DNA of 48,822 nt. Origin: Tunavirus T1. Below are positions 1,127 to 48,736 of the stretch, piece after piece. The first letter of the stretch is position 1, and the number at the start of each line of letters is the position of its first letter. The notes below the pieces were generated by a model. That model ran no database searches. It was not told the DNA's origin and saw only the letters and a list, made by a program, of their open reading frames with translations. Location of the stretch: sequence record MN153797.1; one strand, 5' to 3'. Position numbers and translations under genes: made by a program.

Positions 1127-1453
1127 ATGTTTAATATCAAACCATTAACAGAAGCAGAGAAACAGGCTCAGGCCAAGCAAACCGAAAACATCCAAGTGAT
1201 CGCTGATGCGCTGATTGGTAAGAGGTCAATCAAAATAAACCTCGACACTGTTGGTCAGTCATTTTTTACTAAAGGTTTGGATAAGTACGTTATAAATGTG
1301 AAGGCGAGAGACCTGGTGGCGAGAATTCAAAAGCTAAACAATCAAAAGCTAAAGCTCATCAAGGTCGAAGGCAACATGTGCGAAATTGAGAACCTCAGCG
1401 CACCAGACCCGAATAAGTGGGAAATCACCGATGTCGAGTTTATCGTAGAATAG
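1127..1453 (+). CDS. hypothetical protein
   Basis: ORF track; AAGGAG RBS upstream of ATG. Confidence 0.5.
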   Translation: MFNIKPLTEAEKQAQAKQTENIQVIADALIGKRSIKINLDTVGQSFFTKGLDKYVINVKARDLVARIQKLNNQKLKLIKVEGNMCEIENLSAPDPNKWEITDVEFIVE

Positions 1454-1493
1454 CACTTTTTGTTAAAACCGGATCGGGGTATCTTGCTATAGT
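1451..1493 (+). promoter_or_regulatory. Box-dependent promoter: tagcactttttgtta box + TGc-TATAGT (1488-1493)
   Basis: Box centre to -10 start = 30 bp; box TAG is the stop codon of the upstream ORF; -10 lies in hairpin ggggta..tacccc. Confidence 0.55.
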
Positions 1494-1531
1494 TACCCCA
1501 TCAAAACGAGATACCAATCAGAGGAATCACC

Positions 1532-1762
1532 ATGTCAATCGTCAAGAACCAGCAAGCCATCGATTCAACCAATAACAACCGCTTTGCTATTTTCATCACT
1601 CGCGACAACAAGCGATTTGCAGTAAAGGCCGTACCAGGTGGATACAAAACCTACATGGAAGATAACGGAAAGTGGGTGCGGTGCGACAACCTCGCAAACT
1701 TCTTGGTCTGGAACGCAGACCTGCAGGGATTCGATGACATCAGCACTTTAATTGAGGAGTAA
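1532..1762 (+). CDS. hypothetical protein
   Basis: ORF track; RBS gaggaa. Confidence 0.5.
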   Translation: MSIVKNQQAIDSTNNNRFAIFITRDNKRFAVKAVPGGYKTYMEDNGKWVRCDNLANFLVWNADLQGFDDISTLIEE

Positions 1763-1767
1763 TAATC

Positions 1768-1995
1768 ATGCCACGTTACAGCAACCTAACTCAACTAACC
1801 CGCGTCAACGGGCACATGATCCCGGCAAAATCCACTCACTACGCAATGGGAGCAAAGCACGGATTGTATTTCAAATGGCGCGGTCAATGGAACTTCACGG
1901 TTATTCGTAATTTCTACATTAGAGTTACAGGTGATGACCCGCAATCGGTCGTAGAGAACTCAATCGGCGACAACAAGATCGAGGTGCTGAAATGA
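1768..1995 (+). CDS. hypothetical protein
   Basis: ORF track; RBS gaggag. Confidence 0.5.
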   Translation: MPRYSNLTQLTRVNGHMIPAKSTHYAMGAKHGLYFKWRGQWNFTVIRNFYIRVTGDDPQSVVENSIGDNKIEVLK

Positions 1996-2098
1996 ACTTC
2001 AACATAATTGCTTTCTGGTCTGCCGTATGGTTCTTTTGCGTAGGTCATGTTGTGGTTGGAATCGTAATCATGTTGCTACTGTGTGCGGGAGCGTTCGA

Positions 2099-2272
2099 AT
2101 GATGCGGATTCTGATTTGCATGATGGCGGCGGTCGCCATGGCTATCCTGGTAGTGTCCGGCTGCGGCGAGGCCAGGGATAGCTGTCATGAAACCGGGAGC
2201 CAGGTTACTACTTTCGTGATGGTTGGCAACGTATTGCTACCAATAACATCAAATGAAATCACTTGCGAATAG
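2099..2272 (+). CDS. small putative lipoprotein (signal peptide MMRILICMMAAVAMAILVVSGC)
   Basis: Internal ATG of ORF 2027..2272 preceded by gggag; hydrophobic N-terminus ending in lipobox-like VSGC. Confidence 0.4.
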   Translation: MMRILICMMAAVAMAILVVSGCGEARDSCHETGSQVTTFVMVGNVLLPITSNEITCE

Positions 2273-2312
2273 CACTTTTTGTTAAAACTCAACTCCGGGG
2301 TTGCGATATAGT
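2270..2312 (+). promoter_or_regulatory. Box-dependent promoter: tagcactttttgtta + TATAGT (2307-2312)
   Basis: Centre to -10 = 30 bp; -10 in hairpin ggggtt..aacccc; box TAG = upstream stop codon. Confidence 0.55.
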
Positions 2313-2343
2313 AACCCCATCGACAACGAACGAGGACGCAAAC

Positions 2344-2832
2344 ATGAAAATTAAATTACTTAGCAATGGCGGTTACAAGGGATTCACCCGCGACCTGGAA
2401 GCTGACCCTATCGTGGTTGACGCGGTTAAGTGCGACTCAAGTACTGGAGGCTACCGCGTTAAGGTTGATGACCTTGTAAAAGCTGGCGTGTACGATCTTG
2501 ATTATGGCCTGTCGGTTAGCCCGGTATTTGGCCCAGCTGACTTCAACGAGAAAGACGGAACGATGTTCTTTTTTGATTGGGAAGTGAAGGCAAACATCAA
2601 GCCGCGCAAGGTTCGTCTTCTCAGCAATGGCGGCTACCCGATGCGACCAGGTTATGAGAATCGCACGTTCCCGGTTATCGTTGACTTCATTGGGACAACT
2701 GACAACTTGGTATACGTTAGCCATGAGCAACTTAAGGCAGTTGGATTCGTTGGCGGTATGAATAAAGAAGCGCTTTGCTTCTTCCATCGATGTCCAGAGC
2801 CGATCGGTATTGAGTGCGAGTTAGTATACTAA
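2344..2832 (+). CDS. hypothetical protein with internal duplicated motif K(I/V)(K/R)LLSNGGY
   Basis: ATG 2344 in frame with ORF 2263..2832, RBS gagga; repeat seen in translation. Confidence 0.5.
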   Translation: MKIKLLSNGGYKGFTRDLEADPIVVDAVKCDSSTGGYRVKVDDLVKAGVYDLDYGLSVSPVFGPADFNEKDGTMFFFDWEVKANIKPRKVRLLSNGGYPMRPGYENRTFPVIVDFIGTTDNLVYVSHEQLKAVGFVGGMNKEALCFFHRCPEPIGIECELVY

Positions 2833-2873
2833 GCACGAATTGTTAAAAGGGGATTTGGCCTGACTGGTATAAT
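2831..2873 (+). promoter_or_regulatory. Box-dependent promoter: aagcacgaattgtta + TGg-TATAAT (2868-2873)
   Basis: Centre to -10 = 30 bp; extended -10; hairpin ggggatt..aatcccc. Confidence 0.55.
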
Positions 2874-2903
2874 CCCCACATCAACCACTAATAGGAAAGC
2901 ATC

Positions 2904-3389: not shown

Positions 3390-3538
3390 TGACTGCATGG
3401 GTCTTGATTATCTTGATGAGCAAAGGTCCGGATCACGTATACATGGAAAGTCAACAATCATGCAACAAGGCACGGGAAGTTATCGCAGAGAACAAGCCGT
3501 TCGGATATGAAGTAAAAACTATGTGCGTTAAACGATAG
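3389..3538 (+). CDS. small hypothetical protein (49 aa)
   Basis: ATG overlaps upstream stop (taATGa); stop TAG is first triplet of the next box; below ORF-track size cutoff. Confidence 0.3.
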   Translation: MTAWVLIILMSKGPDHVYMESQQSCNKAREVIAENKPFGYEVKTMCVKR

Positions 3539-3578
3539 CACGAATTGCTAAACCTTCCGCAAGGCCATTTGATATAGT
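3536..3578 (+). promoter_or_regulatory. Box-dependent promoter: tagcacgaattgcta + TGa-TATAGT (3573-3578)
   Basis: Centre to -10 = 30 bp; hairpin aaggcca..tggcctt. Confidence 0.55.
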
Positions 3579-3618
3579 GGCCTTATTGAAGCACGACAAC
3601 CAACTGGAGGTAAAATTT

Positions 3619-4141: not shown

Positions 4142-4360
4142 ATGGCTACTATCATGACAGTAGAAGATGCAGCACGCGATGCAGTGGAAGGAATGCGCCC
4201 AAATACCTCCAGAATAGCACACTACTACAAATCTGAGGTGTCGGCAGTGCAATTGGTCCACGAAATTTTAAGGCTCCCACAAGTCGATTCAGCGCGCGTT
4301 GTGACGTGCTTAAAAAATTATTTTTGCATCACTATTAAAACGAATAGCACGAATTTCTAA
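4142..4360 (+). CDS. hypothetical protein
   Basis: ORF track only; 3' end runs through the next promoter box. Confidence 0.35.
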   Translation: MATIMTVEDAARDAVEGMRPNTSRIAHYYKSEVSAVQLVHEILRLPQVDSARVVTCLKNYFCITIKTNSTNF

Positions 4361-4388
4361 AACCTATCAAGGGGAATACGCTATGATT
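4345..4388 (+). promoter_or_regulatory. Box-dependent promoter: tagcacgaatttcta + TATGAT (4383-4388)
   Basis: Centre to -10 = 31 bp. Confidence 0.45.
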
Positions 4389-4417
4389 CACCTACACCAA
4401 CAAACGAGGAAGCGATC

Positions 4418-4864
4418 ATGAAACACTTAATCTGCATTGAAGCGCCTAACGATCAATACACCCTGCATGGACTTGGTGTGTTCAAAGGTCACTACATTAC
4501 CGCAGGAACTTACGATGCTCGTCGCGGCGATGGCGACCTAATGATTACGTCAAAAGAAGTAAATCCGTACATCATGCAGAATCTTGGCAATAACGAATAT
4601 ATGGCCTATGGCTGCAACGCGGTGTACAAGCACGTTAAGATCCGCAAGCGTGTTGTGCGTGCATTCAAGAAGATTGCAATTAAATACTGGAAAATGAGCA
4701 AGAAAGATGCCGGACGTTGGGCGCGCAACGTTGCAGATTCATACTTCTATCGTAACGGCGAATCCTGCTACTTCCTGATCGATGAACTTATGGAAAACTA
4801 CGGTGGCGACTTCAGCCAGGGTAGCTTTGATGACTGGGCCAACTATGAGATCAGTTGCTGGTAA
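4418..4864 (+). CDS. hypothetical protein
   Basis: ORF track; RBS gaggaag. Confidence 0.5.
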   Translation: MKHLICIEAPNDQYTLHGLGVFKGHYITAGTYDARRGDGDLMITSKEVNPYIMQNLGNNEYMAYGCNAVYKHVKIRKRVVRAFKKIAIKYWKMSKKDAGRWARNVADSYFYRNGESCYFLIDELMENYGGDFSQGSFDDWANYEISCW

Positions 4865-4907
4865 TAGCACGAATTGCTAAAACTTGCTCAAGGGCATTTG
4901 TTAGAAT
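4865..4907 (+). promoter_or_regulatory. Box-dependent promoter: tagcacgaattgcta + TGt-TAGAAT (4902-4907)
   Basis: Centre to -10 = 30 bp; hairpin aagggcat..atgccctt. Confidence 0.55.
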
Positions 4908-4947
4908 GCCCTTCGTTGAGTTAAGCAACCAATCAGAGGAATAAATC

Positions 4948-5959: not shown

Positions 5960-5961
5960 AC

Positions 5962-6534
5962 ATGAAAACAGCTATCATTTTAAACGGCGCACCTGGTGCG
6001 GGAAAGGACACTATCGGATGCATCCTGGCTGACACTTACGATCATGTAGCGCTACGCAGCTTCAAAGCGCCAATGTTTGAGATTGCCCGAGCAATCCTGG
6101 GTGAGACTAATTTCGAGTATTTCATGTTCTTGTATGAGGACCGTCGCTATAAAGAAGAGCCAGCGTCAATCCTGAACGGTAAAAGCCCGCGCCAGTTTAT
6201 GATCTGGATTAGCGAGGAGGTCATCAAGCCGCAGTTCGGAAATCGCTTCTTCGGTATGCGAGCGGAAAGTAAGGTGAAAGAGTCGCATTCACTTTCGGTA
6301 TTTACTGACGGTGGATTCAAAGACGAGATCTTGCAGATGATTGAAGGTGACATCCAGGTCAAGCTGTGTCGAATCCATCGCAACGGTTGCAACTTTGACA
6401 ACGACAGTCGCGACTATATCTATCTTGACGATATGATCGGGGTCAACGGTTATCAGGAGTGTGACTTCTTTTCTGTCGAAGGCCATCCAGAAATTACCGC
6501 TCAGCACATAGCCGCCACGTTCATCAATAAATAG
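5962..6534 (+). CDS. P-loop nucleotide kinase (dNMP kinase-like)
   Basis: Walker A GAPGAGKDT at N-terminus; size and layout fit small (d)NMP kinases. Confidence 0.55.
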   Translation: MKTAIILNGAPGAGKDTIGCILADTYDHVALRSFKAPMFEIARAILGETNFEYFMFLYEDRRYKEEPASILNGKSPRQFMIWISEEVIKPQFGNRFFGMRAESKVKESHSLSVFTDGGFKDEILQMIEGDIQVKLCRIHRNGCNFDNDSRDYIYLDDMIGVNGYQECDFFSVEGHPEITAQHIAATFINK

Positions 6535-6574
6535 CACGAATTGCTAAAACGTCGGTGTGGTGATTTGATATAGT
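6532..6574 (+). promoter_or_regulatory. Box-dependent promoter: tagcacgaattgcta + TGa-TATAGT (6569-6574)
   Basis: Centre to -10 = 30 bp; box TAG = stop of kinase gene. Confidence 0.55.
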
Positions 6575-6606
6575 TACCTCATCGACAACGAAGAGAGAAA
6601 ATCGAA

Positions 6607-8082: not shown

Positions 8083-8083
8083 C

Positions 8084-8311: not shown

Positions 8312-8321
8312 TGAACACTAA

Positions 8322-8342
8322 CCCGCTCCGGCGGGTTTTTTT
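8322..8342 (+). terminator. Rho-independent terminator
   Basis: Hairpin cccgc-tccg-gcggg followed by T7 run. Confidence 0.65.
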
Positions 8343-8354
8343 ATGCCTGCAATA

Positions 8355-8377
8355 TGGTAAAATAGCACTAAATGTTA
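8355..8377 (+). promoter_or_regulatory. Extended -10 promoter (TGg-TAAAAT, 8355-8363) with box tagcactaaatgtta (8363-8377) over the predicted start site
   Basis: Read directly; precedes terminase small subunit gene. Confidence 0.45.
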
Positions 8378-8395
8378 AACAAAGAGGATGTATTT

Positions 8396-15060: not shown

Positions 15061-15089
15061 TTTGACGCTTTAACAAAAAGTGCTATTAT
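15061..15089 (+). promoter_or_regulatory. Sigma70-like promoter (TTTGAC, 17 bp, TATTAT) with box taacaaaaagtgcta inside the spacer
   Basis: Read directly; box at 15071-15085. Confidence 0.45.
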
Positions 15090-15094
15090 TGAAG

Positions 15095-15119
15095 CCGTGA
15101 ACATAATCACGGTTTTTTA
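15095..15119 (+). terminator. Leader hairpin plus T-run between promoter and major capsid gene (possible attenuator)
   Basis: ccgtga-acataa-tcacgg then TTTTTT. Confidence 0.45.
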
Positions 15120-15139
15120 TTAACTATGGAGAAGTAATC

Positions 15140-16099
15140 ATGACTACTAAAAAATTTGATGAAGCAGATAAAAGCAATGTTGAAATGTATCTGATCCAGG
15201 CTGGCGTAAAACAGGATGCGGCCGCAACGATGGGTATCTGGACCGCTCAGGAACTACACCGCATCAAAAGCCAGTCCTATGAAGAAGACTACCCGGTCGG
15301 CTCAGCTTTACGCGTATTCCCGGTTACAACCGAGCTTTCTCCGACCGACAAGACGTTTGAGTATATGACCTTTGATAAGGTTGGTACGGCTCAGATTATC
15401 GCAGACTACACCGACGATCTTCCGCTGGTTGATGCCCTGGGTACTTCTGAATTTGGCAAGGTGTTCCGTCTTGGTAACGCGTACCTGATCTCAATCGACG
15501 AAATCAAAGCGGGTCAGGCAACTGGTCGCCCACTGTCAACCCGTAAGGCGAGTGCGTGCCAGTTGGCGCATGATCAGCTTGTTAACCGCCTGGTGTTCAA
15601 AGGTTCCGCGCCGCACAAGATTGTGTCCGTGTTCAACCATCCGAATATCACCAAAATTACCTCTGGTAAGTGGATTGATGTATCTACTATGAAGCCGGAA
15701 ACTGCGGAAGCTGAGCTAACTCAAGCGATCGAAACCATCGAGACGATTACTCGTGGTCAGCACCGCGCAACCAACATCCTGATCCCGCCTTCCATGCGTA
15801 AGGTTTTGGCGATTCGTATGCCTGAGACAACCATGTCTTACCTGGACTATTTTAAGTCTCAGAACTCCGGTATCGAAATCGACTCTATCGCAGAGCTTGA
15901 GGATATTGACGGCGCAGGCACCAAAGGCGTACTGGTGTACGAAAAGAATCCGATGAACATGTCCATCGAGATCCCGGAAGCATTTAACATGCTGCCAGCA
16001 CAACCGAAAGACTTGCACTTTAAAGTGCCTTGCACCTCTAAGTGTACTGGTCTTACAATTTATCGCCCGATGACTATTGTCTTAATCACTGGCGTGTAA
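15140..16099 (+). CDS. major capsid protein
   Basis: 319-aa ORF in canonical position with strong RBS ggagaag; followed by a strong terminator. Confidence 0.65.
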   Translation: MTTKKFDEADKSNVEMYLIQAGVKQDAAATMGIWTAQELHRIKSQSYEEDYPVGSALRVFPVTTELSPTDKTFEYMTFDKVGTAQIIADYTDDLPLVDALGTSEFGKVFRLGNAYLISIDEIKAGQATGRPLSTRKASACQLAHDQLVNRLVFKGSAPHKIVSVFNHPNITKITSGKWIDVSTMKPETAEAELTQAIETIETITRGQHRATNILIPPSMRKVLAIRMPETTMSYLDYFKSQNSGIEIDSIAELEDIDGAGTKGVLVYEKNPMNMSIEIPEAFNMLPAQPKDLHFKVPCTSKCTGLTIYRPMTIVLITGV

Positions 16100-16106
16100 T
16101 ATTATA

Positions 16107-16134
16107 GGGGCTAACTTAGTTAGTCCCTTTTTTT
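16107..16134 (+). terminator. Rho-independent terminator
   Basis: Hairpin ggggctaac-tta-gttagtccc then T7. Confidence 0.65.
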
Positions 16135-16149
16135 ATTGGAGAAATCAAA

Positions 16150-18790: not shown

Positions 18791-18834
18791 TCATTTCTGT
18801 AAAATCATCTTATCAACTTTATTCGATTAACTTT

Positions 18835-18849
18835 TAACAAAAAGTGCTA
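18835..18849. promoter_or_regulatory. TAGCA-N5-TGCTA box (taacaaaaagtgcta) about 22 bp upstream of the chaperone gene start
   Basis: Read directly; too close to ATG for the standard promoter geometry. Confidence 0.4.
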
Positions 18850-18871
18850 TCAACCAATCAGGAGAAACATC

Positions 18872-24966: not shown

Positions 24967-24972
24967 AATTAA

Positions 24973-24995
24973 CCCGCCTTGCGCGGGTTTTTTTT
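24973..24995 (+). terminator. Rho-independent terminator (copy 2 of duplicated cassette)
   Basis: cccgc-cttgc-gcggg then T8. Confidence 0.65.
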
Positions 24996-25007
24996 CGCCT
25001 GTATAAT
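24979..25007 (+). promoter_or_regulatory. Sigma70-like promoter overlapping the terminator (TTGCGC, 17 bp, TATAAT)
   Basis: -10 TATAAT at 25002-25007. Confidence 0.5.
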
Positions 25008-25043
25008 GAGTCCACCGATAAATAGCACAAAAAGGTAAACATC

Positions 25044-29851: not shown

Positions 29852-30378
29852 TTGTATGTCCTCGTCGTTAGTGTGATTGCATTGTATGTCGCATTTACTT
29901 TTATTGCAATAGAGCGATTACAATTTTTTTCGTGTAACAGGCGTATATTTTTGTAACCGGAATGGGTGTTACAAAATCGCCTCCATCCGACCGCAGGGAG
30001 ATATGATAAAAACTCTATATAATATATATAGATAGATAATATTTAATTTTAGCTTTATATATATAATTATTGTTGTGTAACAGTTGTATATCGTGTAACA
30101 GGTGATTTGATTGATTCGTCAAATTTCTATCATGTATGTTCAAAATTTAATCAATCTGGATTCTATTTGTAGGTATCTCTGTATTTCTAATAAAAAGCGG
30201 TTACAAGTGTTACGCAATAGACAGCGCATAAAAATCTACTTAAGCCATTGATTCTGTTGATGCTGGTTGTAACTTGAGCAATATAGACACGCAATTACAC
30301 ACTGATTACATGTATTCGATTGACTAAACGCTGTTAATGGCTATAATGGATTCATCGTAAACGAAGGAGATAAACGCA
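29852..30378. promoter_or_regulatory. AT-rich divergent control region with repeated GTGTAACA-type motifs
   Basis: cgtgtaacag at about 29931, 30078, 30098; ggtgttaca at about 29955; gtgttacg at about 30210; poly-AT tracts 30010-30060. Confidence 0.45.
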
Positions 30379-31443: not shown

Positions 31444-31517
31444 ACGGCATAAATAGCTAAACAAATAATTAATGAGGTGTTATAATGCACCTCATACACC
31501 AATCAGGAGAAGTTAAG

Positions 31518-32165
31518 ATGCAATTATCACCAGAAACAAACGAAATCCTTCCCGCACTGTTCAATGCTCGCAATAAATTTGCTAAAGCAAAGAAGGACGC
31601 AAAAAACAATCACCTGAAAAATTCATACGCAACTCTTGATGCAATGATGGCTGCGGTTAGTCCGGCGCTAACCGACAACGATATTATGATCCTGCAATCA
31701 ATGCTGGACACCAGCACTGAAACAACCTTCCATCTTGAAACGATGCTGATTCACAAATCCGGGCAGTGGGCCAAATTCTTCATGATGATGCCGATTGCAA
31801 AGCGCGATCCGCAAGGCGTAGGTTCTGCAATGACGTATGCTCGACGTTACTCATTAGCCGCAGCGCTGGGGATTAGCCAGAGTGATGACGATGCTCAGCT
31901 TGCAGTGAAATCCGTCAAGGACTGGAAAAAAGAACTTGATGCGTGTGAAGACATCGAGTCACTGAAAGATGTATGGGCCAACGCTTACCGCCAGACTGAC
32001 ACGGCGAGCAAGTCAATCATTCAGGATCACTACAACGCATTGAAGGCTAAATTTGAGATCGGTAAAGCTCGCGGCATTCGCCCGGCGCAACCGGAACAGA
32101 AAAAACAGGTTGAAGCAACAAGCGCGAAGCCTGTACAATCCCAATCAATCACCAACTTCGAATAA
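31518..32165 (+). CDS. erf: single-strand annealing protein (Erf-like)
   Basis: ATG 31518 with RBS caggagaag; motif GSAMTYARRYSL; sits between exonuclease and SSB. Confidence 0.5.
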   Translation: MQLSPETNEILPALFNARNKFAKAKKDAKNNHLKNSYATLDAMMAAVSPALTDNDIMILQSMLDTSTETTFHLETMLIHKSGQWAKFFMMMPIAKRDPQGVGSAMTYARRYSLAAALGISQSDDDAQLAVKSVKDWKKELDACEDIESLKDVWANAYRQTDTASKSIIQDHYNALKAKFEIGKARGIRPAQPEQKKQVEATSAKPVQSQSITNFE

Positions 32166-34867: not shown

Positions 34868-34888
34868 AGTATAAACTCCTTAAGTAAA

Positions 34889-34935
34889 TAGCACGAATTG
34901 CTAAGCAATGATTTTATCATTGTGATACCTGCCTT
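34889..34935 (-). promoter_or_regulatory. Sigma70-like promoter for tail fiber (minus: TTGCAA, 17 bp, TAAAAT) with box tagcacgaattgcta over the predicted start site
   Basis: Read on minus strand: cattgcaaggcaggtatcacaatgataaaat then box at 34889-34903. Confidence 0.45.
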
Positions 34936-34944
34936 GCAATGGGC

Positions 34945-35903: not shown

Positions 35904-35964
35904 TTCCAGATCTCCAAAATAAAAAACGCGTAGAAGGATGTTAACCCGCTACGCGTCGTTTGTT

Positions 35965-36417
35965 TTAACTAAAAATGCTATTGGTCGTTCCGATATCTTC
36001 CCTCTTCACGACGCGCATAAATTTCTTGTTCTTGCATCGCTTCTCAAGGCACTTGCCGTTACCGTCAAACTTCAGGTCGAATCGCAACCATGCGGCCCTA
36101 AACCCTTTGCACCCCTGTCGGCGGTAAGCACGATGCGCAGCTTCAGCGCCTTGCCATGAAATCATATTGCGTTCTTTCCAGCCTTGCACCGTCTGATTGC
36201 TAACCTTCAGAGCCTTTGCGCAGGCCGCCGGGCCGCCGTAATATTCGATAAGGGCATCAAGTCGCGCTCGCAGTCCGGCGCGCGTTTCTTCTTTATGAAT
36301 ATAGAACCCGCAACGCTGGCGAGGCTTTTTATCTTTACCGCGCCGTGTTCCGTTGTTACCATTGATGTGACGTTTATCGATTTCACCAGTTGACTCTGCG
36401 ATACGTTGAATACTCAT
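35965..36417 (-). CDS. helix-turn-helix DNA-binding protein (candidate transcription regulator)
   Basis: HTH-like segment GGPAACAKALKVSNQTVQGWKERN; divergent from helicase promoter. Confidence 0.45.
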   Translation of the reverse strand: MSIQRIAESTGEIDKRHINGNNGTRRGKDKKPRQRCGFYIHKEETRAGLRARLDALIEYYGGPAACAKALKVSNQTVQGWKERNMISWQGAEAAHRAYRRQGCKGFRAAWLRFDLKFDGNGKCLEKRCKNKKFMRVVKREDIGTTNSIFS

Positions 36418-36430
36418 CTTGATTCCCCTA

Positions 36431-36473
36431 TAGCACTTTTTGCTAAAAACGTTTACTTTATGCCGTGTATTAT
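36431..36473 (+). promoter_or_regulatory. Box-dependent promoter: tagcactttttgcta + TATTAT (36468-36473)
   Basis: Centre to -10 = 30 bp; -10 in hairpin aacgtttac..gtaaacgtt. Confidence 0.55.
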
Positions 36474-36510
36474 AGCGTAAACGTTACAACGATTCAAAGG
36501 ATTAATAGCC

Positions 36511-38529: not shown

Positions 38530-38942
38530 TTACAGACAAAGGTGATTATTTAGAATTTTACGAGAGAGACACAAGCGACACTCGAAAGGAGGATGCTCAT
38601 CAGGTGGATTGTGTATCTTGGCTGAAATACAATTTCCCTCACCTTCTATTTTGGCACACTGTCAATGAAGGTGAAAAAACAATCACATCGGCGCTCAGGG
38701 ATGAGCAGGCAGGATTACTTAAAGGCGTGTCAGACTTCGTTATCCTGATTGGTGTTAACTCACGATACCCGTTTGCAGCAATCGAACTTAAGCGGGTTAA
38801 TAAGTCAGGCAAAGGAAAGGCGTCACCAGTCAGCGACAAGCAAAGGGAATTTCTCCAAAAGGTCAGGGAGCGTGGCGGCTTCTCTGCCGTCGCATACGGA
38901 TTCGGGCAATTCAAGATCGCAATTTACGAAATGATGAAATAG
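38526..38942 (+). CDS. VRR-NUC-like nuclease domain protein
   Basis: PD-(D/E)XK-like core VSDFVIL..AAIELKR; overlaps helicase stop. Confidence 0.45.
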   Translation: MITDKGDYLEFYERDTSDTRKEDAHQVDCVSWLKYNFPHLLFWHTVNEGEKTITSALRDEQAGLLKGVSDFVILIGVNSRYPFAAIELKRVNKSGKGKASPVSDKQREFLQKVRERGGFSAVAYGFGQFKIAIYEMMK

Positions 38943-38982
38943 CACTTTTTGTTAAAACTGCCGGGATGGAATCTGGCATTAT
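38940..38982 (+). promoter_or_regulatory. Box-dependent promoter: tagcactttttgtta + TGg-CATTAT (38977-38982)
   Basis: Centre to -10 = 30 bp; box TAG = upstream stop. Confidence 0.5.
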
Positions 38983-39009
38983 TATCTCACCAAAACGAGA
39001 GGAATAAAA

Positions 39010-39723
39010 ATGAAAGACTTTAATGATATCGAAACTATCGACTTTGCAGAAACTGGTTGCTCATTCACTCGCGAAGCAATAGCATCAGGCGGTTATTATC
39101 AGGCATTGAAAACGCCAACCTGTAAAGAGATTTCAGGGCGTCGATACAAGGGGACAAATACCCCTGACGCTGTTCGTGATTTATGGTCAACTCCGCGAGA
39201 GGTTATTGCATACCTTGAGGGTCGTTATGGGAAATATGATCTCGACGCTGCGGCAAGCGAAGAAAATAAAGTTTGCGAGAAGTTTTACTCTCAGGAAACA
39301 AACTGCTTAAAACGTTGGTGGGGAAAGAATAAGCACGTTTGGTTAAATCCTCCTTATAGCCGACCTGATATATTTGTCAAGAAGGCCATTGAGCAAATGG
39401 AGCACAACAATCAGATCGATATGCTTTTACCTGCAGATAACTCTACTGCGTGGTTTACTGAAGCGCGGCAGAACGCAGCTGAAATAATCTGGATTGAAGC
39501 GGACTTGACTGAGGATATTGACGGCAATGAATACGCACGATCCGGTCGCCTGGCTTTCATATCCGGTGAAACTGGAAAGGCCGTATACGGTAATAACAAA
39601 GGTTCGGTAATTTTTATTATGCGCGAACTTAAAGAAGGTGAGGTGCAACAGACTCACTACATCCCAATCACAAGCATTTGCCCTTCGGTGAAAAACAAAC
39701 GAGCAAAGGTGAGGAAAGTATGA
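39010..39723 (+). CDS. dam: DNA N6-adenine methyltransferase (Dam-like)
   Basis: Catalytic motif NPPY in WLNPPYSRP; RBS gagagga. Confidence 0.65.
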   Translation: MKDFNDIETIDFAETGCSFTREAIASGGYYQALKTPTCKEISGRRYKGTNTPDAVRDLWSTPREVIAYLEGRYGKYDLDAAASEENKVCEKFYSQETNCLKRWWGKNKHVWLNPPYSRPDIFVKKAIEQMEHNNQIDMLLPADNSTAWFTEARQNAAEIIWIEADLTEDIDGNEYARSGRLAFISGETGKAVYGNNKGSVIFIMRELKEGEVQQTHYIPITSICPSVKNKRAKVRKV

Positions 39724-39971
39724 TGAGCGAAAAAATGGTTCCTGTTAAATTAACTGAGCAAGGTTTATGGCTACTTTATCGAGCTACGTGCTGCGAAATT
39801 ATGGAGCGAAACGGATTGACTCAGGATGTTATTGGTTGCGATCTGTGGGAGTTCACTAGTTCTCTTGATATGTCTTTCGATGAGATAAAAAATGAATACA
39901 TAGAGAACTGGCCTTCAATCATACAGAAAGACGTGGAAGAACTTAAAGCTGATACAATCGTACAGCACTAA
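39720..39971 (+). CDS. hypothetical protein
   Basis: ATG overlaps dam stop; RBS ggtgagga. Confidence 0.45.
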   Translation: MMSEKMVPVKLTEQGLWLLYRATCCEIMERNGLTQDVIGCDLWEFTSSLDMSFDEIKNEYIENWPSIIQKDVEELKADTIVQH

Positions 39972-40005
39972 TTGCTAAAACTACCCGGCGAAAGTCGGGT
40001 ATAGT
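39963..40005 (+). promoter_or_regulatory. Box-dependent promoter: cagcactaattgcta + TATAGT (40000-40005)
   Basis: Centre to -10 = 30 bp; hairpin acccgg-cgaaagt-cgggt just upstream of -10. Confidence 0.5.
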
Positions 40006-40037
40006 TATTTCATAGAAACGAAATGAGGAATCAGAAG

Positions 40038-40247: not shown

Positions 40248-40497
40248 GCGCGAAGTGTGGGAGCACGCAAAGGAATGCGGCATCTCAGACGATATAGCAT
40301 TAATTGCTAAATACTTTGATATAAAGGATGTTAGCATTATATCAAACGGCAAGATTTCATTTATGGAAGGTATGCCGAGAAAAATGCAAAGAGTTCCAGC
40401 CACTCCATCACTTGAGTTTTACCGCGAAGAGGGAAAGAGAATTGAGCGAGAAAGAAAATCCACAAAAAACGGCAAGTCTTCCAGGCTTAAATATTAA
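40225..40497 (+). CDS. hypothetical protein
   Basis: ORF track only. Confidence 0.35.
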   Translation: MLIKKQGKREVWEHAKECGISDDIALIAKYFDIKDVSIISNGKISFMEGMPRKMQRVPATPSLEFYREEGKRIERERKSTKNGKSSRLKY

Positions 40498-40807: not shown

Positions 40808-41941
40808 ATGTCACAAGCTAAAATCACTACCGAGCAACTTATCGAAGAGCGCATGAGCGGCCTGACACTTCGCGAGATCGCGGAAAAGTACGGTATGCAC
40901 ATTCGCACTGTCGAGGCGCGTCACGCAAAACTTGCAAAAGAAGGCCACTTCCACGGCAACGAGCATGTTGCTAAGATGGTTCCGGAAGGCTTCATGGTAA
41001 AAGGCACGTCAACCATGATTGACGCGGAAGGTAACGAGAAGATTCGTTGGGTTAAGACATCAGTTGATAATGAGCGCCTTGAGGTTCTAATGGAAAAAGC
41101 GCGTGAAGCATTCTGTTCAGAGTTGCCTAAGGCTATTCCATCTGAATCACCTGACGTTAGTTTTGATGAAGACACGCTTGCGATGTATCCAGTTTTTGAT
41201 TTGCACATTGGTGCTCTTGCTCACAAACATGAGTGCGGCGAAAACTACGACACAGCGACAGCAGAGAAGGTTATGAATGGGTTCTTTGACTACGCTGTAG
41301 ATAAGGCGCCAAACTCAAAGAATGCCGTATTGGTATTGGGTGGCGATTTCCTACATTACGACTCTTTGGAGTCTAAGACTCCAGCGTCAGGCCATTACTT
41401 AGATTCTGACAGTCGTTACGCTAAGCTTGTTTATGTCGCAATCCGATCAGTACGACGCGCAGTCTCTCGAATGCTGGAGAAGCACCAAGTTATTGATATT
41501 AAAGCAATAAGTGGGAATCACGACGAATCAGGGATGGTTTGGTTGCGCGCTGCGCTTGCTGCATTTTATGAAGATGAGCCGCGCGTAAATGTTGATGTTA
41601 GCCCTGCCGCAATGATGATGACCAGCTTTGGTAAGACCCTTATTGGATACACTCACGGGCATCAAATGCGAAAAGCAGATACTCGACTAAGTGTTATGGC
41701 AACTGATTTTCGTAAGTTGTTTGGTCAAAGTGATTACGTTTACACGCATAGCGGTCACTGGCACAGTCAAAAGATTACAGAAACAAACTTGGGTATTGAT
41801 GAGGTTCATGGTCAGCTTGGAAGTCCTGACGCATACTCTGCCAATGGCGGTTGGAGGTCTCAGCGTCAAGCTGCTGTGATTGTCTATCACAAGGAATTTG
41901 GTGAGGTTGGACGATTCATTTGTCGACCTGAAATGTTCTAA
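40808..41941 (+). CDS. calcineurin-like metallophosphoesterase with N-terminal HTH-like segment
   Basis: Motifs LVLGGDFLHYD and ISGNHDESG; N-terminal LTLREIAEKYGMHIRTV. Confidence 0.55.
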   Translation: MSQAKITTEQLIEERMSGLTLREIAEKYGMHIRTVEARHAKLAKEGHFHGNEHVAKMVPEGFMVKGTSTMIDAEGNEKIRWVKTSVDNERLEVLMEKAREAFCSELPKAIPSESPDVSFDEDTLAMYPVFDLHIGALAHKHECGENYDTATAEKVMNGFFDYAVDKAPNSKNAVLVLGGDFLHYDSLESKTPASGHYLDSDSRYAKLVYVAIRSVRRAVSRMLEKHQVIDIKAISGNHDESGMVWLRAALAAFYEDEPRVNVDVSPAAMMMTSFGKTLIGYTHGHQMRKADTRLSVMATDFRKLFGQSDYVYTHSGHWHSQKITETNLGIDEVHGQLGSPDAYSANGGWRSQRQAAVIVYHKEFGEVGRFICRPEMF

Positions 41942-41942
41942 A

Positions 41943-41985
41943 TAGCACCTTTTGTTAAAACAGTACCCGCGAAAGCGGGTATTAT
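41943..41985 (+). promoter_or_regulatory. Box-dependent promoter: tagcaccttttgtta + TATTAT (41980-41985)
   Basis: Centre to -10 = 30 bp; hairpin acccgc-gaaa-gcgggt. Confidence 0.5.
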
Positions 41986-42013
41986 TGTTTTATAGAAACA
42001 AGAGGAGATTGCA

Positions 42014-42496
42014 ATGAACTGGCACGAGCATTACGAATATAGGGATGGTGTTCTATATCACAAGGTAAAGCCATGCAGAAGGCATGATGTAAATATTGGG
42101 GATGTTGCTGGAAGGGTTGCCAAAAACGGCTATCACTATGTTGTTCACAAGAACAGGCCGTATAAGAGATCTCGAGTTATATGGGAGATGTTTAATGGTG
42201 AGATACCAGATGGTTTTGTTATAGATCATCTGAATCACAATGCCACCGATGATAGGATCGATAACCTTGAGTGTAAGCCAAGAAGAGAGAATATGGTTAA
42301 TGTTAAGTTAAGGATTGATAGCACGACCGGAGTAACTGGCGTATCAAGAAAGAGGGATAACAAGTGGAGGGCGTACATAACAATTATGGGTAAGCAGAAG
42401 TGCAAGAGCTTTGACACGTTTGAGGAAGCTTGCGCGCAGAGGATTGAATGGTCAGTAACTCATGATTTTCACCCAAATCACGGTGGAACATACTAA
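42014..42496 (+). CDS. HNH homing endonuclease
   Basis: GVLYHK..DHLNHNATDDRIDNL..GVTGVS motifs; paralog of 5465..5959. Confidence 0.7.
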   Translation: MNWHEHYEYRDGVLYHKVKPCRRHDVNIGDVAGRVAKNGYHYVVHKNRPYKRSRVIWEMFNGEIPDGFVIDHLNHNATDDRIDNLECKPRRENMVNVKLRIDSTTGVTGVSRKRDNKWRAYITIMGKQKCKSFDTFEEACAQRIEWSVTHDFHPNHGGTY

Positions 42497-42539
42497 TAGC
42501 ACCTTTTACCTAACCCGCGCCACAGAAGTGCGGCATAGT
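42497..42539 (+). promoter_or_regulatory. Box-dependent promoter (degenerate box tagcaccttttacct) + CATAGT (42534-42539)
   Basis: Centre to -10 = 30 bp. Confidence 0.4.
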
Positions 42540-42568
42540 AACCACATCGAAAACAGAGATGCTATATC

Positions 42569-42745
42569 ATGAAGATAGTCAAGTGCATCCGAAATGACTC
42601 CAAAACACTTCCATTCCGTGTAAATCAGATCTATAGTGTTGGTTATGATTTCGGTGGGGGATTATTTGAGATTTACGACGGGCGAGGTTCAGCAATCCAG
42701 ACTCCTCTGAACGGTCACTACCTGGAATTTATTGAGATAGATTAA
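42569..42745 (+). CDS. small hypothetical protein (58 aa)
   Basis: ATG after promoter; not in ORF track (under 60 aa); weak RBS. Confidence 0.3.
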   Translation: MKIVKCIRNDSKTLPFRVNQIYSVGYDFGGGLFEIYDGRGSAIQTPLNGHYLEFIEID

Positions 42746-42863
42746 CAATAGCATTCATCACCTTACAGGCTGGCATGATTTACATGCTGGCCTTTTTGCG
42801 TTGTGTCAAATAAATTTGAAGGTTAAAATCTACTCACTTGTTCAAAAAATATATGGTGAGATT

Positions 42864-44498: not shown

Positions 44499-44502
44499 AT
44501 TA

Positions 44503-46071: not shown

Positions 46072-46610
46072 CACAATAAACTCCTTAGTTGACGGCGTGA
46101 ATGATACACCGTCAATGGTACACGCGTTTTGCAAAAAGTGCTATTCGATCCGTGATTCTCATGAAAACCGTATAGCCTTTCCGCTTCCTTACTTGCTTTA
46201 GCCGCTGCATCCAGCGTCATGAAGGTCCCTAAGTGTTTTGTCTTTTTATTTATGGTTATGTTTGCCGTGTATCTATTTGTTTTTTTATTCCAATACACTC
46301 CCATAACTCCTGTGTTTGATGACACTACTCCCTTGTTTCTTAGGTTGTCTTGCCTAGTTACTAGCCTGAGATTCTCAATTCTGTTATCGTCTCTTTCATG
46401 GTTTATGTGGTCTACATCCATTCCTTCTGGTATGTTTCCGTAGTGTATTTTCCATACTATTCGATGGGCGTATTCAAATACACCTCCTGGAAAACATATT
46501 GACCGATAACCTTTTTTATTAACAGTTCCGGCAAGTAGATTTCGTCTTCTTCCGATTCTCCACTCTTTCCAGTACAGTCTCCCGCTAACGTATTTCAGTT
46601 CATCTTTCAT
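46071..46610 (-). CDS. HNH homing endonuclease
   Basis: AHRIVWKIHYGNIPEGMDVDHINHERDDNRIENLRLV, GVMGVY; 3' end reads through promoter box 46129-46143. Confidence 0.7.
   Translation of the reverse strand: MKDELKYVSGRLYWKEWRIGRRRNLLAGTVNKKGYRSICFPGGVFEYAHRIVWKIHYGNIPEGMDVDHINHERDDNRIENLRLVTRQDNLRNKGVVSSNTGVMGVYWNKKTNRYTANITINKKTKHLGTFMTLDAAAKASKEAERLYGFHENHGSNSTFCKTRVPLTVYHSRRQLRSLL
46101..46143 (-). promoter_or_regulatory. Box-dependent promoter (minus): tagcactttttgcaa + TATCAT (46106-46101)
   Basis: Centre to -10 = 30 bp; lies inside the 3' end of the HNH ORF. Confidence 0.5.
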
Positions 46611-47023
46611 AAGTATTTACTCTCAAAGGTTGTGCCGTCTGCGATACTAAAACCAACCTCTTCGCGGAATAAGGTCCAGCGGCAACCGTCCTCATCAAAG
46701 ATGTAACCAGCCACGCCTCCAAGAGCGCGACCGCTTTCTACCTGGTAACGCTTTCCAACCTTGAATGATTTTTTCATTGGGTTGCGATGGTCAAGTCCGG
46801 TGCACTTGAGCGTCTTTGTTTTCAACTCGGTGAACTTCGCGAAGAAGATTTCATCAGATCCGTGAATATGTAATTCATCATGCTTTTCAAGTTTTAAATA
46901 CTTCCCGCATTTTAACTTTACTTCACGAGTATCATCATAGCGCTCACGACCTTTGTACAGATTGTTTACTTCGAATCCTGTGATTTTGTCTGCGGAAGTG
47001 CATTTAAGTTTGATTGATTTCAT
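46607..47023 (-). CDS. hypothetical protein
   Basis: ORF track; RBS caggag. Confidence 0.45.
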   Translation of the reverse strand: MKSIKLKCTSADKITGFEVNNLYKGRERYDDTREVKLKCGKYLKLEKHDELHIHGSDEIFFAKFTELKTKTLKCTGLDHRNPMKKSFKVGKRYQVESGRALGGVAGYIFDEDGCRWTLFREEVGFSIADGTTFESKYL

Positions 47024-47059
47024 TGTGTTCGCTCCTGATTGGTTATCTTGAATAAGGCC

Positions 47060-47102
47060 ACTTTATCAAATGACCTTACGGCAATATTAACAAATCGTGC
47101 TA
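47060..47102 (-). promoter_or_regulatory. Box-dependent promoter (minus): tagcacgatttgtta + TGa-TAAAGT (47065-47060)
   Basis: Centre to -10 = 30 bp. Confidence 0.5.
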
Positions 47103-47103
47103 T

Positions 47104-47313
47104 TTACCAGGGAATATAATCGTCAACGTCCTCATTAATATCATCACCGGGTAACTCAAAGTTAGGATCGTATTCGCTTTCAGCATCCATATCCATATCA
47201 CCAAGAGCCTCGTCAAGTGTGATTTCTTTATATGCTACCTTGATGCACCATTCGGAACTAAGTCCGGCATCAAGCGCTGCAAAATAACGAGTCCAGAAAT
47301 TATCTTGTTCCAT
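47104..47313 (-). CDS. small acidic protein with C-terminus ..DDYIPW
   Basis: 69 aa; C-terminal third is mostly Asp/Glu and ends in an aromatic residue. Confidence 0.45.
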   Translation of the reverse strand: MEQDNFWTRYFAALDAGLSSEWCIKVAYKEITLDEALGDMDMDAESEYDPNFELPGDDINEDVDDYIPW

Positions 47314-47316
47314 TAA

Positions 47317-47541
47317 TTAGCCCCACGAATTAATGTAAATCGAGTTAGCCTCAAGCGTTGCACGAACATCCGCATCTGTTGCATTTATCAGTCGAGAGCC
47401 TGGCACGCTTCCGATAACACTATTTCCGTTACGCGTCTTAGTTACCGTCATTGAAATAAAGCCTGAAGACTTATCCATCTTGATAAATACACGGCCTTTT
47501 GCGTTCAGGTGCTTGATGATATTCTCAACTTTAATGCTCAT
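47317..47541 (-). CDS. hypothetical protein
   Basis: Internal ATG of ORF 47317..47625 with RBS aaagga. Confidence 0.4.
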   Translation of the reverse strand: MSIKVENIIKHLNAKGRVFIKMDKSSGFISMTVTKTRNGNSVIGSVPGSRLINATDADVRATLEANSIYINSWG

Positions 47542-47574
47542 TTTTGATTCCTTTGTTTTGTTTGGTATGGGAGT

Positions 47575-47618
47575 AATATACCTTACTCCCCGATGTGTGT
47601 CTTTAGCAATTTGTGCTA
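47575..47618 (-). promoter_or_regulatory. Box-dependent promoter (minus): tagcacaaattgcta + TATATT (47580-47575)
   Basis: Centre to -10 = 31 bp; hairpin gggagta..tactccc. Confidence 0.5.
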
Positions 47619-47758
47619 TCAGCACTCAGAAATTACTTTACACTCTTTGATCGTGCCGCCGAGAACTACCTTTTGCATCATTGCTTTTTGGCGACTATCG
47701 TAAACGCGAACATTTTTTACGCTGTTAAACTTTCCTGTATAGAAAGTGTGAACATAAA

Positions 47759-48079
47759 TCATTTTTTACCGTCCCATGTTTGATATGCCGTAACCAGGTT
47801 AATGCTATGGTCGAACTCGTCAACGCTAAGCGATCCGATTCTAACAAGCTCTTTGTTGTGCTTAATGTCAACCATCCGGCTATATGGATGACCTGGCGCG
47901 TATTTAAATAGACGCTTGCTGTCGGCAATGTCTGCGTTAATTCCGTAGAATCGGCCTACTGCCGCCTTAACGCGCTCCATGATGTTTTTTTCGTGGATTG
48001 CCGCCGCGTTATTTAGTGACGCAACCGTACTTCCGTTAATCTTCGGTGACTTCGTTGTGATTTTGTAAGTGTGGTTCAT
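47759..48079 (-). CDS. hypothetical protein
   Basis: Internal ATG (MNHTYK) of ORF 47759..48145 with RBS gggggaa. Confidence 0.4.
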   Translation of the reverse strand: MNHTYKITTKSPKINGSTVASLNNAAAIHEKNIMERVKAAVGRFYGINADIADSKRLFKYAPGHPYSRMVDIKHNKELVRIGSLSVDEFDHSINLVTAYQTWDGKK

Positions 48080-48095
48080 TATTCCCCCTAACCAG

Positions 48096-48296
48096 TCAGG
48101 ATAGCTTTCTAGCTTCATCAATGATAACAGGTTCGAGACGCTCAAGTCGAACGCGGAACGTGTTCATAAATCCCTCGTTATTCTTCAATAACTCGAAGGC
48201 GTCCGTAGCTTCAATGGCGCTACTACCCATGTAAGCGATTACGCGCTTCTGTGTTTTTCGTGAGATCGCCACTACACGGTAAATATTATCACTCAT
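48096..48296 (-). CDS. hypothetical protein
   Basis: Internal ATG (MSDNIY) with RBS AAGGAGG. Confidence 0.4.
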   Translation of the reverse strand: MSDNIYRVVAISRKTQKRVIAYMGSSAIEATDAFELLKNNEGFMNTFRVRLERLEPVIIDEARKLS

Positions 48297-48660
48297 ACAA
48301 TGCCTCCTTAACACGATCCGCTACGAATGAGTTAACGGTGATTGAATAGTCAGCCACGAAGCAAGGAGCAACACTGCCTGGCTCAGTGCGCATGAATGGT
48401 TTATTGAACTGAGTGATTACCTCGCCAGTATCGTTATCAATTAAGCGAGACGCGCCTAAGCGGTCCACCACGCGCGTTACGCGGTCCGCGCACTCCATTA
48501 CATCACTTACGTCATAATAGGCGGTTAGAGCGGCTATCATTGCCTTCTCTTGCTTGTTGTGAATCTTACGCGCAATGTTCTCTATCGCAACGTGCACTTT
48601 CTCGTCAGTCTGGATTACCGAGCTGGCTGAGAAGTCCAGATCTGTGAACTGCTTAAACAT
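48289..48660 (-). CDS. hypothetical protein
   Basis: ORF track; RBS gaggaaag. Confidence 0.45.
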   Translation of the reverse strand: MFKQFTDLDFSASSVIQTDEKVHVAIENIARKIHNKQEKAMIAALTAYYDVSDVMECADRVTRVVDRLGASRLIDNDTGEVITQFNKPFMRTEPGSVAPCFVADYSITVNSFVADRVKEALYE

Positions 48661-48693
48661 AATACTTTCCTCGTTTACTGTTGATGTGATGAA

Positions 48694-48736
48694 TCATACC
48701 CAGTAGACATGGATAAGTCGTTAGCAAAAAATGCTA
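48694..48736 (-). promoter_or_regulatory. Box-dependent promoter (minus): tagcattttttgcta + TATGAT (48699-48694)
   Basis: Centre to -10 = 30 bp. Confidence 0.5.

Follow-up and report, generated by a model that had tools for sequence, protein, structure and literature searches.

We found that a short box repeated through the genome of coliphage T1 matches the marbox, the binding site of the Escherichia coli regulators MarA, SoxS, and Rob, and that it stands in the class II position, at a fixed short distance upstream of a -10 hexamer. The match is secure in both sequence and geometry. The DNA analyzed here, called the window, is the whole 48,822-nt record MN153797.1, and its source is coliphage T1 (99.9% identity to AY216660, NC_005833, and MK213796). 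The T1 boxes add a new member, found where none was expected, to a well-known class of promoters, and judged from sequence and geometry they are probably functional class II promoters of the MarA/SoxS/Rob type served by host factors. T1 is one of the original T phages and its transcription organisation was never worked out; the latest annotation papers give only about three canonical promoters and list the repeat as unexplained. The class II marbox reading supplies a concrete promoter map with about 18 predicted starts and named candidate host factors.

The repeat family itself is already known; what appears new is the recognition of this repeat as a host marbox standing in class II position. 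An earlier note on this DNA had left open whether the family was described; it was, as a repeat without assigned function. The 2024 re-annotation of phage TLS by German, Kropinski et al. (PMC11447400) reported a 21-nt direct repeat, aaATAGCACnnnTTGnTAAAA, at 21 places, which was intergenic, co-oriented with transcription, and about 76 nt upstream of start codons, and similar repeats were said to be present in T1, Rtp, and Rogue1. In TLS no more than three canonical sigma70 promoters were found, and a stoperator, an enhancer-binding site, and an UP element were proposed as functions of the repeat, with none assigned (PMC11447400). The T1 box is this Drexlerviridae 21-nt direct repeat, with consensus and placement identical to those in TLS. 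The fixed -10 hexamer and the marbox are not mentioned in the TLS paper, and our full-text literature searches found no paper tying the repeat to a fixed-distance -10 or to a named factor. In the deposited annotation of the window, ribosome-binding sites, terminators, and a few software-predicted promoters are marked, and the box family has no entry.

Sequence and spacing of the T1 box

The earlier note counted about 21 copies of an inverted-repeat box, TAGCA-N5-TGCTA, and the count held: the window has 9 exact copies (0.09 in shuffles) and 21 copies at ≤1 mismatch (1.36 in shuffles). The directional form TAGCACnnnTTGnTAAAA occurs 21 times at ≤2 mismatches, compared with 0.6 in shuffles, and the conserved motif, written in full as aATAGCACwwwTTGyTAAAAC, extends beyond the box and has a direction. 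The TAG of the box had been placed at the stop codon of the upstream gene, and annotation and sequences agree that the box abuts or overlaps this codon in most cases.

Two sets of copies were used for the logos. The first contained 73 copies from T1, Rtp (Braunvirinae), Klebsiella Webervirus, and Hanrivervirus, aligned on the box without gaps, and its logo was made without reference to the marbox. The second contained 380 distinct contexts, for which the Motto phage record and IMG/VR contigs were added to the genomes of the first set; its logo was chosen with the marbox consensus, so only the unspecified and degenerate columns count as independent evidence. In the 73-copy logo, A0, T10, T11, and A15-17 were each conserved in at least 90% and C6 in 85%, and these positions lack dyad partners. 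Opposite the invariant G3, the 380 contexts had C or T (238 G:C, 135 G:T, 1 A:T), with no compensating change. The profile in the logos is of the marbox type, with invariant GCAC, a W-rich middle, T-G, Y (C 63%, T 36%), T, and AAA. The earlier note had implied a dimeric protein on a 15-bp palindrome, and this part is not supported: conservation is asymmetric, G3 has an uncompensated partner, and the profile is that of the monomeric site with two helix-turn-helix (HTH) contacts used by MarA, SoxS, and Rob. The two-fold symmetric half-site conservation of a palindromic operator of the lambda cI or P22 C2 type was not found.

For the comparison with the host site we used two published marbox consensuses, the 15-mer GCAHWWWWTGYYAAA (PMC6900184) and the 20-mer AYNGCACNNWNNRYYAAAYN (PMC2064960). 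T1 has 11 exact matches to the 15-mer, with 0.08 expected, and 20 matches to the 20-mer at ≤1 mismatch, with 0.87 expected. The boxes of the earlier note account for the matches to both, save for the copies first noted here at 25022 and 31444. The marbox, also named soxbox or robbox, is bound by a monomer of MarA, SoxS, or Rob via two HTH motifs, with GCAC as RE1 and YAAA as RE2. The marboxes of marRAB (ATGCCACGTTTTGCTAAATC) and micF (ACAGCACTGAATGTCAAAAC) are near-copies of the phage box, and the micF marbox has the AAAAC tail in common with it.

The geometry was as exact as the sequence. Sixteen copies had been listed at a fixed 30-31 bp from a -10 hexamer, and all 16 do carry a -10-like hexamer; 14 of them have 18 nt between the 20-bp motif and the hexamer, which means 30 bp from the box centre to the first base of the hexamer, and the copies 47618 and 48736 have a gap of 19 nt, or 31 bp. 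The class II-like arrangement described for them was also correct, as the box centre is at about -42, no -35 hexamer stands at sigma70 spacing, and an extended -10 is common. We added two promoter-type copies, 31445(+) and 35980(-), and the spacer is 18 nt in 15 of the resulting 18 T1 copies, with a full range of 17-19. All 18 are oriented toward the downstream gene. The earlier note had staked its reading on the presence of the same spacing in relatives, and the spacing is kept in four other Drexlerviridae lineages. TAnnnT is found at box position 38 in 46 of the 73 copies (background 1.0-1.6% per position), the best -10 match lies at positions 37-39 in 60 of the 73, and TAnnnT follows after exactly 18 nt in 215 of the 380 contexts.

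The second conserved block of the 73 copies reads T35, G36 (81%), n, T38 A39 T40 a a T43, which is an extended -10, and 77-81% of copies have its G (TGn; at -14). At the predicted -1/+1 (C49 A50), CA was conserved in 62%/75% of the 73 copies, and the predicted starts given below are deduced from the -10 position together with this CA. They lie near 1500, 2319, 2880, 3585, 4394, 4914, 6581, 31493, 36480, 38989, 40012, 41992, and 42546 on the plus strand and near 35931, 46094, 47053, 47568, and 48686 on the minus strand. Downstream of C49 A50 follows an A/C-rich leader, CATCGAAACGA; the leader segment that the earlier note had recognized after the -10 is conserved as CATCGAaACGA in both logos. 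The leader CATCG(a/t)AAACGA...GGAG is common to the box promoters and the canonical recE promoter (30320-30378), and because it also occurs at the latter it is a separate element, independent of the box, perhaps an initial transcribed sequence or a translation leader. TTGCTA was rejected as a displaced -35, since it is 22 bp from the -10 and outside the sigma70 tolerance. A sigma32-like reading of the CCCCAT after some -10s was rejected for its wrong spacing to any TTGAAA-like element, and the C-run is the 3' arm of a hairpin.

The class II promoters of the host regulon have a forward marbox overlapping the -35 element (PMC6900184 for one source), the soxbox of micF is centred at -41.5 (PMC9638938), and Rob contacts -47G and -45A of GCAC in the class II complex solved by cryo-electron microscopy (PMC9178005). 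We measured micF, inaA, and sodA in E. coli K-12 and found a 20-bp marbox, exactly 18 nt, and then TAGAAT, TATAGT, or TATAAT; the phage consensus spacer of 18 nt is equal to that of all three. When the start is set at the conserved CA, the G of the phage GCAC falls at -47 and its A at -45, and GCAC occupies about -47 to -44 from the predicted start. The T1 copies have the marbox sequence, the forward orientation (18/18), and the fixed distance to the -10 with overlap of the -35. They are like micF, inaA, and sodA in having the same asymmetric 20-bp site, forward, over the -35, and 18 bp from the -10, with no usable -35. They also differ: their match to the consensus is much closer than that of most sites in the host, an extended -10 TGn is added in most of them, 15-20 copies are present per approximately 50-kb genome, and the box is fused to the upstream stop codon with an RNA-type hairpin around the -10.

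Candidate binding proteins

We propose that a monomer of host MarA, SoxS, or Rob (RamA in Klebsiella and others) would bind the asymmetric 20-bp marbox, which in about 18 T1 copies lies along transcription at about -50 to -31, in place of a -35, with an extended -10 exactly 18 bp (17-19) downstream and then a predicted CA start. The bound activator would touch sigma70 region 4 and the alpha C-terminal domain and recruit host RNA polymerase. Rob is expressed constitutively at a high level, and because of this constant abundance it would be the likely factor in the unstressed cell, while MarA and SoxS would add antibiotic and oxidative-stress input. RamA binds the same site in other Enterobacteriaceae, and the abundance of Rob together with this site sharing fits the unchanged box in phages of Escherichia, Shigella, Klebsiella, and others. 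Binding, activation, and the degree to which the phage depends on these factors are what we infer from the match. A MarA-like protein was not found by phmmer when MarA and the Rob N-terminal domain were compared with the six-frame open reading frames of four genomes (best E = 0.44), and when a MarA/SoxS/Rob alignment was compared by hhalign with 58 conserved protein families of T1, the probability was at most 1.5%. If host factors do serve the boxes, a virulent phage family would have wired its early genes to the antibiotic and oxidative-stress regulators of its host. This would have consequences for phage therapy combined with antibiotics, bile, or salicylate, which induce or activate MarA/SoxS/Rob-type regulators, and it would matter for the control of T1 contamination and for employing these compact 50-bp promoters as parts.

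Published reporter data bear on the choice of protein. The orf65 promoter was studied in phage-free E. coli as a 101-bp fragment, 4335-4435, which starts 10 bp upstream of the box, and its activity was independent of Pir and raised by Orf65 (PMC6737242). These data show that host polymerase and any host factors suffice for a box promoter, and they argue against Pir as a general box-binding activator. In the same work, Pir activated Phol and Pdam and repressed its own promoter and PrecE, and Orf65 repressed Ppir (PMC6737242). Neither Phol nor PrecE has a box: the Phol fragment offers no more than a GCAT half-site, and the PrecE promoter is of the canonical type, TTGACT-16-TATAAT. A half-marbox, ATAGCATTCATCACC, with RE1 only, lies at about 42745-42765 inside the Pir-activated Phol fragment, after the orf14 stop and before the terminator upstream of the holin gene. 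No 9-mer at ≤1 mismatch was common to the four Pir-regulated reporter fragments as a candidate Pir operator.

The box could instead be the site of a phage-encoded protein, whether Pir, which is a Cro/CI-type HTH protein like lambda cI or P22 C2, or Orf65, or an unrecognised one, that would activate from about -42 and make the marbox likeness a coincidence or convergence. We regard this as unlikely, although it has to be taken seriously, and several points do weigh against host factors in its favour. Pir activates Pdam, which is a box promoter, and represses Ppir, whose region contains a box; its homologues are found in 824 phage records, so that a phage HTH protein exists across the whole family. 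In the pir-helicase intergenic region, where Pir represses Ppir, strong conservation across five lineages is limited to the box and the overlapping -10s. Orf65 increases expression from its own fragment, which has only the box. The centres of the arms TAGCA and TGCTA are separated by 10 bp, a distance suitable for an HTH dimer, and an activator site near -42 with contact to sigma region 4 is also known from lambda cI at OR2 and P22 C2 at PRM. The host reading is further weakened by consensus position 19 (Y), which is A in 64% of copies.

On the other side, Porf65 is Pir-independent though its box is perfect in reference T1, and two of the promoters that Pir regulates, Phol and PrecE, have no box. 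Homologues of Orf65 occur in 68 phage records only, whereas the box is family-wide. The operators of lambda cI and P22 C2 are symmetric and made for dimers, whereas the T1 box is asymmetric, with a C or T opposite G3 and no compensation, and matches a monomeric two-HTH site. A chance match to 12 of the 13 specified marbox positions together with the 18-bp spacing is very unlikely. The earlier note had named two phage HTH proteins as possible binders, and neither suggestion was supported: Pir (35965..36417) is a real regulator and activates the dam box promoter, but it has no effect on the orf65 box promoter and regulates two boxless promoters, and the N-terminus of 40808..41941 gave only sub-threshold HTH matches. 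Orf65 was also considered as a binder and had no informative match in Pfam, PHROGs, or PDB sequence searches; its AlphaFold model had a pLDDT of 51, from a shallow alignment of 14 sequences with 74-100% identity. For gp70 and gp73, which are annotated as weak HTH proteins, there were no PDB or Pfam matches.

Two further observations weigh against the host reading. A Keio screen with LL5, a TLS-like/T1-like phage, lists in its main text eight genes that the phage requires, while rob, marA, and soxS go unmentioned there (PMC7229145), and since it names none of the three, no single activator appears essential for plating. Redundancy among MarA, SoxS, and Rob, or basal activity of the extended -10, could explain this result. 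The Motto record (ON843697), the one record with a non-enterobacterial host label (Pseudomonas aeruginosa), has 15 class II marbox promoters and 45% G+C. Because of this base composition the host label is doubtful; if the label is correct, the record would be a counter-example to a need for an enterobacterial factor.

The LL5 main text also agrees with self-sufficient sigma70 promoters, in which the extended -10 would work alone and the box would have another role, as a roadblock or "stoperator" against read-through transcription, as an UP-like enhancer, or as a decoy for MarA, SoxS, and Rob, the first two being ideas from the TLS paper. We think this very unlikely. The G at -14 in 77-81% of copies and the good -10 hexamers would allow it, the boxes are intergenic and oriented with transcription as the TLS authors said, and a class II role is excluded for the copies 8363, 25023, 34889, 15085, and 18849, which instead overlap with putative late promoters. 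A roadblock or decoy has no need of one-base precision between box and -10 over hundreds of copies, and the geometry equals that of proven class II promoters. UP elements are A/T-rich (-59 to -38) without invariant G or C, whereas G3, C4, C6, and G12 of the box are conserved at 85-98% in the 73-copy logo. The T1 boxes resemble the stoperators of mycobacteriophage L5 in being many asymmetric intergenic sites in one orientation relative to transcription, but L5 stoperators are bound by a phage repressor, block elongation, and have no -10 at fixed distance. The middle promoters of T4, with the MotA box and AsiA, likewise have no -35 but a good -10 and, upstream of it, a conserved box. The centre of the MotA box is at about -30, and two phage proteins are required there, whereas the T1 box is centred at about -41 and matches the site of a host factor.

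Promoter-type copies and their hairpins

Starting from the left end on the plus strand, the class II marbox promoter at 1450..1500 has its marbox (ATAGCACTTTTTGTTAAAAC) at 1450-1469, its -10 TATAGT with TGn at 1488-1493, and a predicted start at about 1500, and the TAG of its box is the stop codon of the upstream gene. The next one, at 2269..2319 (marbox 2269-2288, predicted start about 2319), has its -10 TATAGT (2307-2312) in the loop of the hairpin GGGGTTGC/GTAACCCC. A degenerate marbox with 3 mismatches follows at 2830..2880 (marbox 2830-2849, -10 TATAAT with TGn at 2868-2873, predicted start about 2880), and the copy at 3535..3585 has zero mismatch to the 20-bp consensus (marbox 3535-3554, -10 TATAGT with TGn at 3573-3578). 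The promoter at 4864..4914, upstream of the polynucleotide kinase gene, consists of the marbox 4864-4883 and the -10 TAGAAT with TGn at 4902-4907, and that at 6531..6581 of the marbox 6531-6550 and the -10 TATAGT with TGn at 6569-6574.

The promoter of orf65 lies between these, at 4344..4394 on the plus strand, with the marbox at 4344-4363 and the -10 TATGAT at 4382-4387. Its marbox has G->T at 4356 in the window, and the reference T1 record has a perfect TTGCTA. Up to 34260, the window and AY216660 differ by 46 substitutions, 36 of which go from G/C in the reference to A/T in the window; 22 of the 46 are G:C->T:A transversions, and one of these, at 4356, damages the orf65 marbox. The two records diverge from about 34268, inside the tail-fibre gene, and the window is 14 nt shorter at the end.

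Upstream of the recombinase (erf) gene, a newly listed promoter-type copy is found at 31444..31493 on the plus strand, where ACGGCATAAATAGCTAAACA (31444-31463) is followed after 17 nt by TGnTATAAT (hexamer 31481-31486) inside the hairpin ATGAGGTG/CACCTCAT. The erf start annotated or called at 31485 falls within this -10, and the true erf start seems to be the ATG at 31518, which follows caggag and the ccaatcag leader that is usual here.

The helicase gene has a class II marbox promoter at 36430..36480 on the plus strand (marbox 36430-36449, -10 TATTAT 36468-36473), and pir is served from the minus strand by a canonical sigma70-type promoter at 36469..36497 (TTGAAT, 17 nt, TATAAT), and in the pir transcript the marbox would occupy about +15 to +35. 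The overlap of the two -10s at 36430-36497 is kept in five lineages. Because their -10 hexamers overlap, the two promoters should be mutually exclusive, and their competition could act as a switch.

Farther along the plus strand, the dam promoter at 38939..38989 has its marbox at 38939-38958 and its -10, CATTAT or TATTAT, within 38977-38985, and lies inside the published Pdam reporter fragment 38810-39027. The promoters at 39962..40012 (marbox 39962-39981, -10 TATAGT 40000-40005) and 41942..41992 (marbox 41942-41961, -10 TATTAT 41980-41985) both have a GAAA-loop hairpin in the spacer. The copy at 42496..42546 (ATAGCACCTTTTACCTAACC, marbox 42496-42515) has a weak RE2 and the -10 CATAGT at 42534-42539. 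A marbox-like copy in a coding region, ATAGCATTAATTGCTAAATA at 40294..40313 on the same strand, has only a weak -10 (TAGCAT).

On the minus strand, the second newly listed promoter-type copy is at 35931..35981, upstream of the primase gene; its marbox (35981-35962) lies over the pir stop codon, and a -10-like TAACAT (35943-35938) is in the loop of a true intrinsic terminator. This arrangement, with the marbox at the pir stop and the hexamer in the terminator loop before primase, was also found in three other genera. The marbox of the promoter at 46094..46144 (46144-46125) is inside the end of an HNH gene, with the -10 TATCAT at 46106-46101 and the ATPase gene downstream. The promoter at 47053..47103 has the marbox 47103-47084 and the -10 TAAAGT with TGn at 47065-47060. 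The last two have 19-nt spacers: one at 47568..47619 (marbox 47619-47600, -10 TATATT 47580-47575), and a degenerate copy with 3 mismatches at 48686..48737 (marbox 48737-48718, -10 TATGAT 48698-48693), which is the first promoter of the leftward early arm. In Rtp, marbox promoters are found in the late region as well, at 6317, 8426, 16304, and 21394, immediately before inserted HNH endonuclease genes and small additional genes, which gives the impression that every such cassette came with a promoter of its own.

The earlier note had also placed the -10 usually inside a hairpin, and hairpins are indeed enriched around the -10 or just upstream of it: Watson-Crick stems of at least 6 bp were found around the -10 in 49% of promoter-type copies and in 8% of shuffles. 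In 16 copies the hairpin is in the spacer, upstream of the -10, often with a GAAA-type tetraloop, and in 27 copies the -10 is in the loop; the sites include 1470-1500, 2288-2319, 3554-3585, 4883-4914, 39981-40001, and 41961-41982. Stem sequences vary between copies and the structure is kept. When G:T pairs were allowed, the observed stems lengthened more than the shuffled ones, and allowing A:C pairs gave no such gain. Most of these hairpins have no U-tract and are therefore not classical terminators; that at 35980(-) forms a complete intrinsic terminator, whose loop contains the -10-like hexamer. The distance from box to -10 is constant whether the hairpin encloses or precedes the -10, which means that the -10 belongs to the promoter and not to the hairpin. 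The hairpins are a layer separate from the marbox promoter, and they are probably sense-strand RNA structure at the 3' end of read-through transcripts of the upstream gene, for example a 3' stabiliser, a pause, or a processing site.

The same hairpins could be taken to mean that the whole element works in RNA, with the box as a 5-bp stem and 5-nt loop like lambda boxB, the second hairpin as a processing, stabilising, or antitermination signal, and the -10 as a loop motif. The second hairpin is real and RNA-like (G:T enriched, A:C not, loops of the GNRA type) and the box can be drawn as a small hairpin, but we consider this reading extremely unlikely. The box as a boxB-like RNA hairpin was rejected for the lack of covariation in its arms (G:C 238, G:T 135, A:T 1), positions outside the arms are equally conserved, the -10 keeps its distance from the box with both hairpin types, and no Rfam family matches the element.

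Copies beside late genes and a class I-like copy

Five copies adjoin late genes and overlap putative late promoters. At the small terminase gene, the marbox 8362-8381 (feature 8358..8381, plus strand) has no downstream -10; it comes after a terminator and TGgTAAAAT (hexamer 8358-8363), abuts the ribosome-binding site, and would span the putative late start. The marbox at the tail-tip (J-like) gene, ATAGCACAAAAAGGTAAACA at 25022..25041 on the plus strand, is between a terminator plus TATAAT and the start codon, and its TLS equivalent is DR8. The tail-fibre operon promoter at 34888..34939 on the minus strand is TTGCAA-17-TAAAAT, with a backward marbox at 34888-34907 (forward on the plus strand) at about +7 to +24, and Rtp has the same arrangement. 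These three share the order terminator, -10, marbox across or just after the start, and ribosome-binding site.

In the other two, a backward marbox is in the spacer and its reversed GCAC makes the TGn of an extended -10. The sigma70-type promoter of the major capsid gene at 15062..15089 on the plus strand is TTGACG, 16 nt, and TGcTATTAT, and the backward marbox 15067-15086 fills the spacer. Before the tape-measure chaperone gene, the marbox is on the minus strand at 18831..18850, and its reversed GCAC forms TGcTATCAA on the plus strand.

A factor bound at these late-gene copies would be expected to repress, and their placement suggests a possible early/late switch run by a single factor. In its widest form, Rob, MarA, SoxS, or RamA would be a master switch that turns on about 18 early promoters from class II positions and, lying over their core or start site, holds off the putative late promoters of terminase, capsid, chaperone, tail-tip, and tail-fibre genes, until thousands of consensus marboxes, made by phage DNA replication, titrate the factor, flip early to late expression, and disarm the multidrug and oxidative-stress response of the host. 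We consider this wide form quite unlikely; if true, it would mean that phage development is tuned by bile salts, antibiotics, and oxidants.

One T1 copy has a geometry that looks class I-like, the single such case in this phage. Class I marbox promoters have their own -35, and their marbox is backward, with its centre about 50-70 bp upstream of the start. The feature at 101..164 on the plus strand combines a backward marbox at 101-120 (forward on the minus strand and without a -10 of its own) with the canonical promoter TTGATT-17-TATGAT (136-164), and about 60.5 bp separate the marbox centre from the predicted start downstream. A class I-like arrangement is found in Motto too, at -55.5, and none was seen in the other genomes examined.

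Several promoters stand beside terminators. The terminator is directly before the -10 at 8322-8395 and 24972-25045, and at 15062-15121, 16077-16137, and 35931-35981 the new transcript would begin inside the terminator hairpin and escape it. These arrangements fit the "transcripton" idea quoted for T1.

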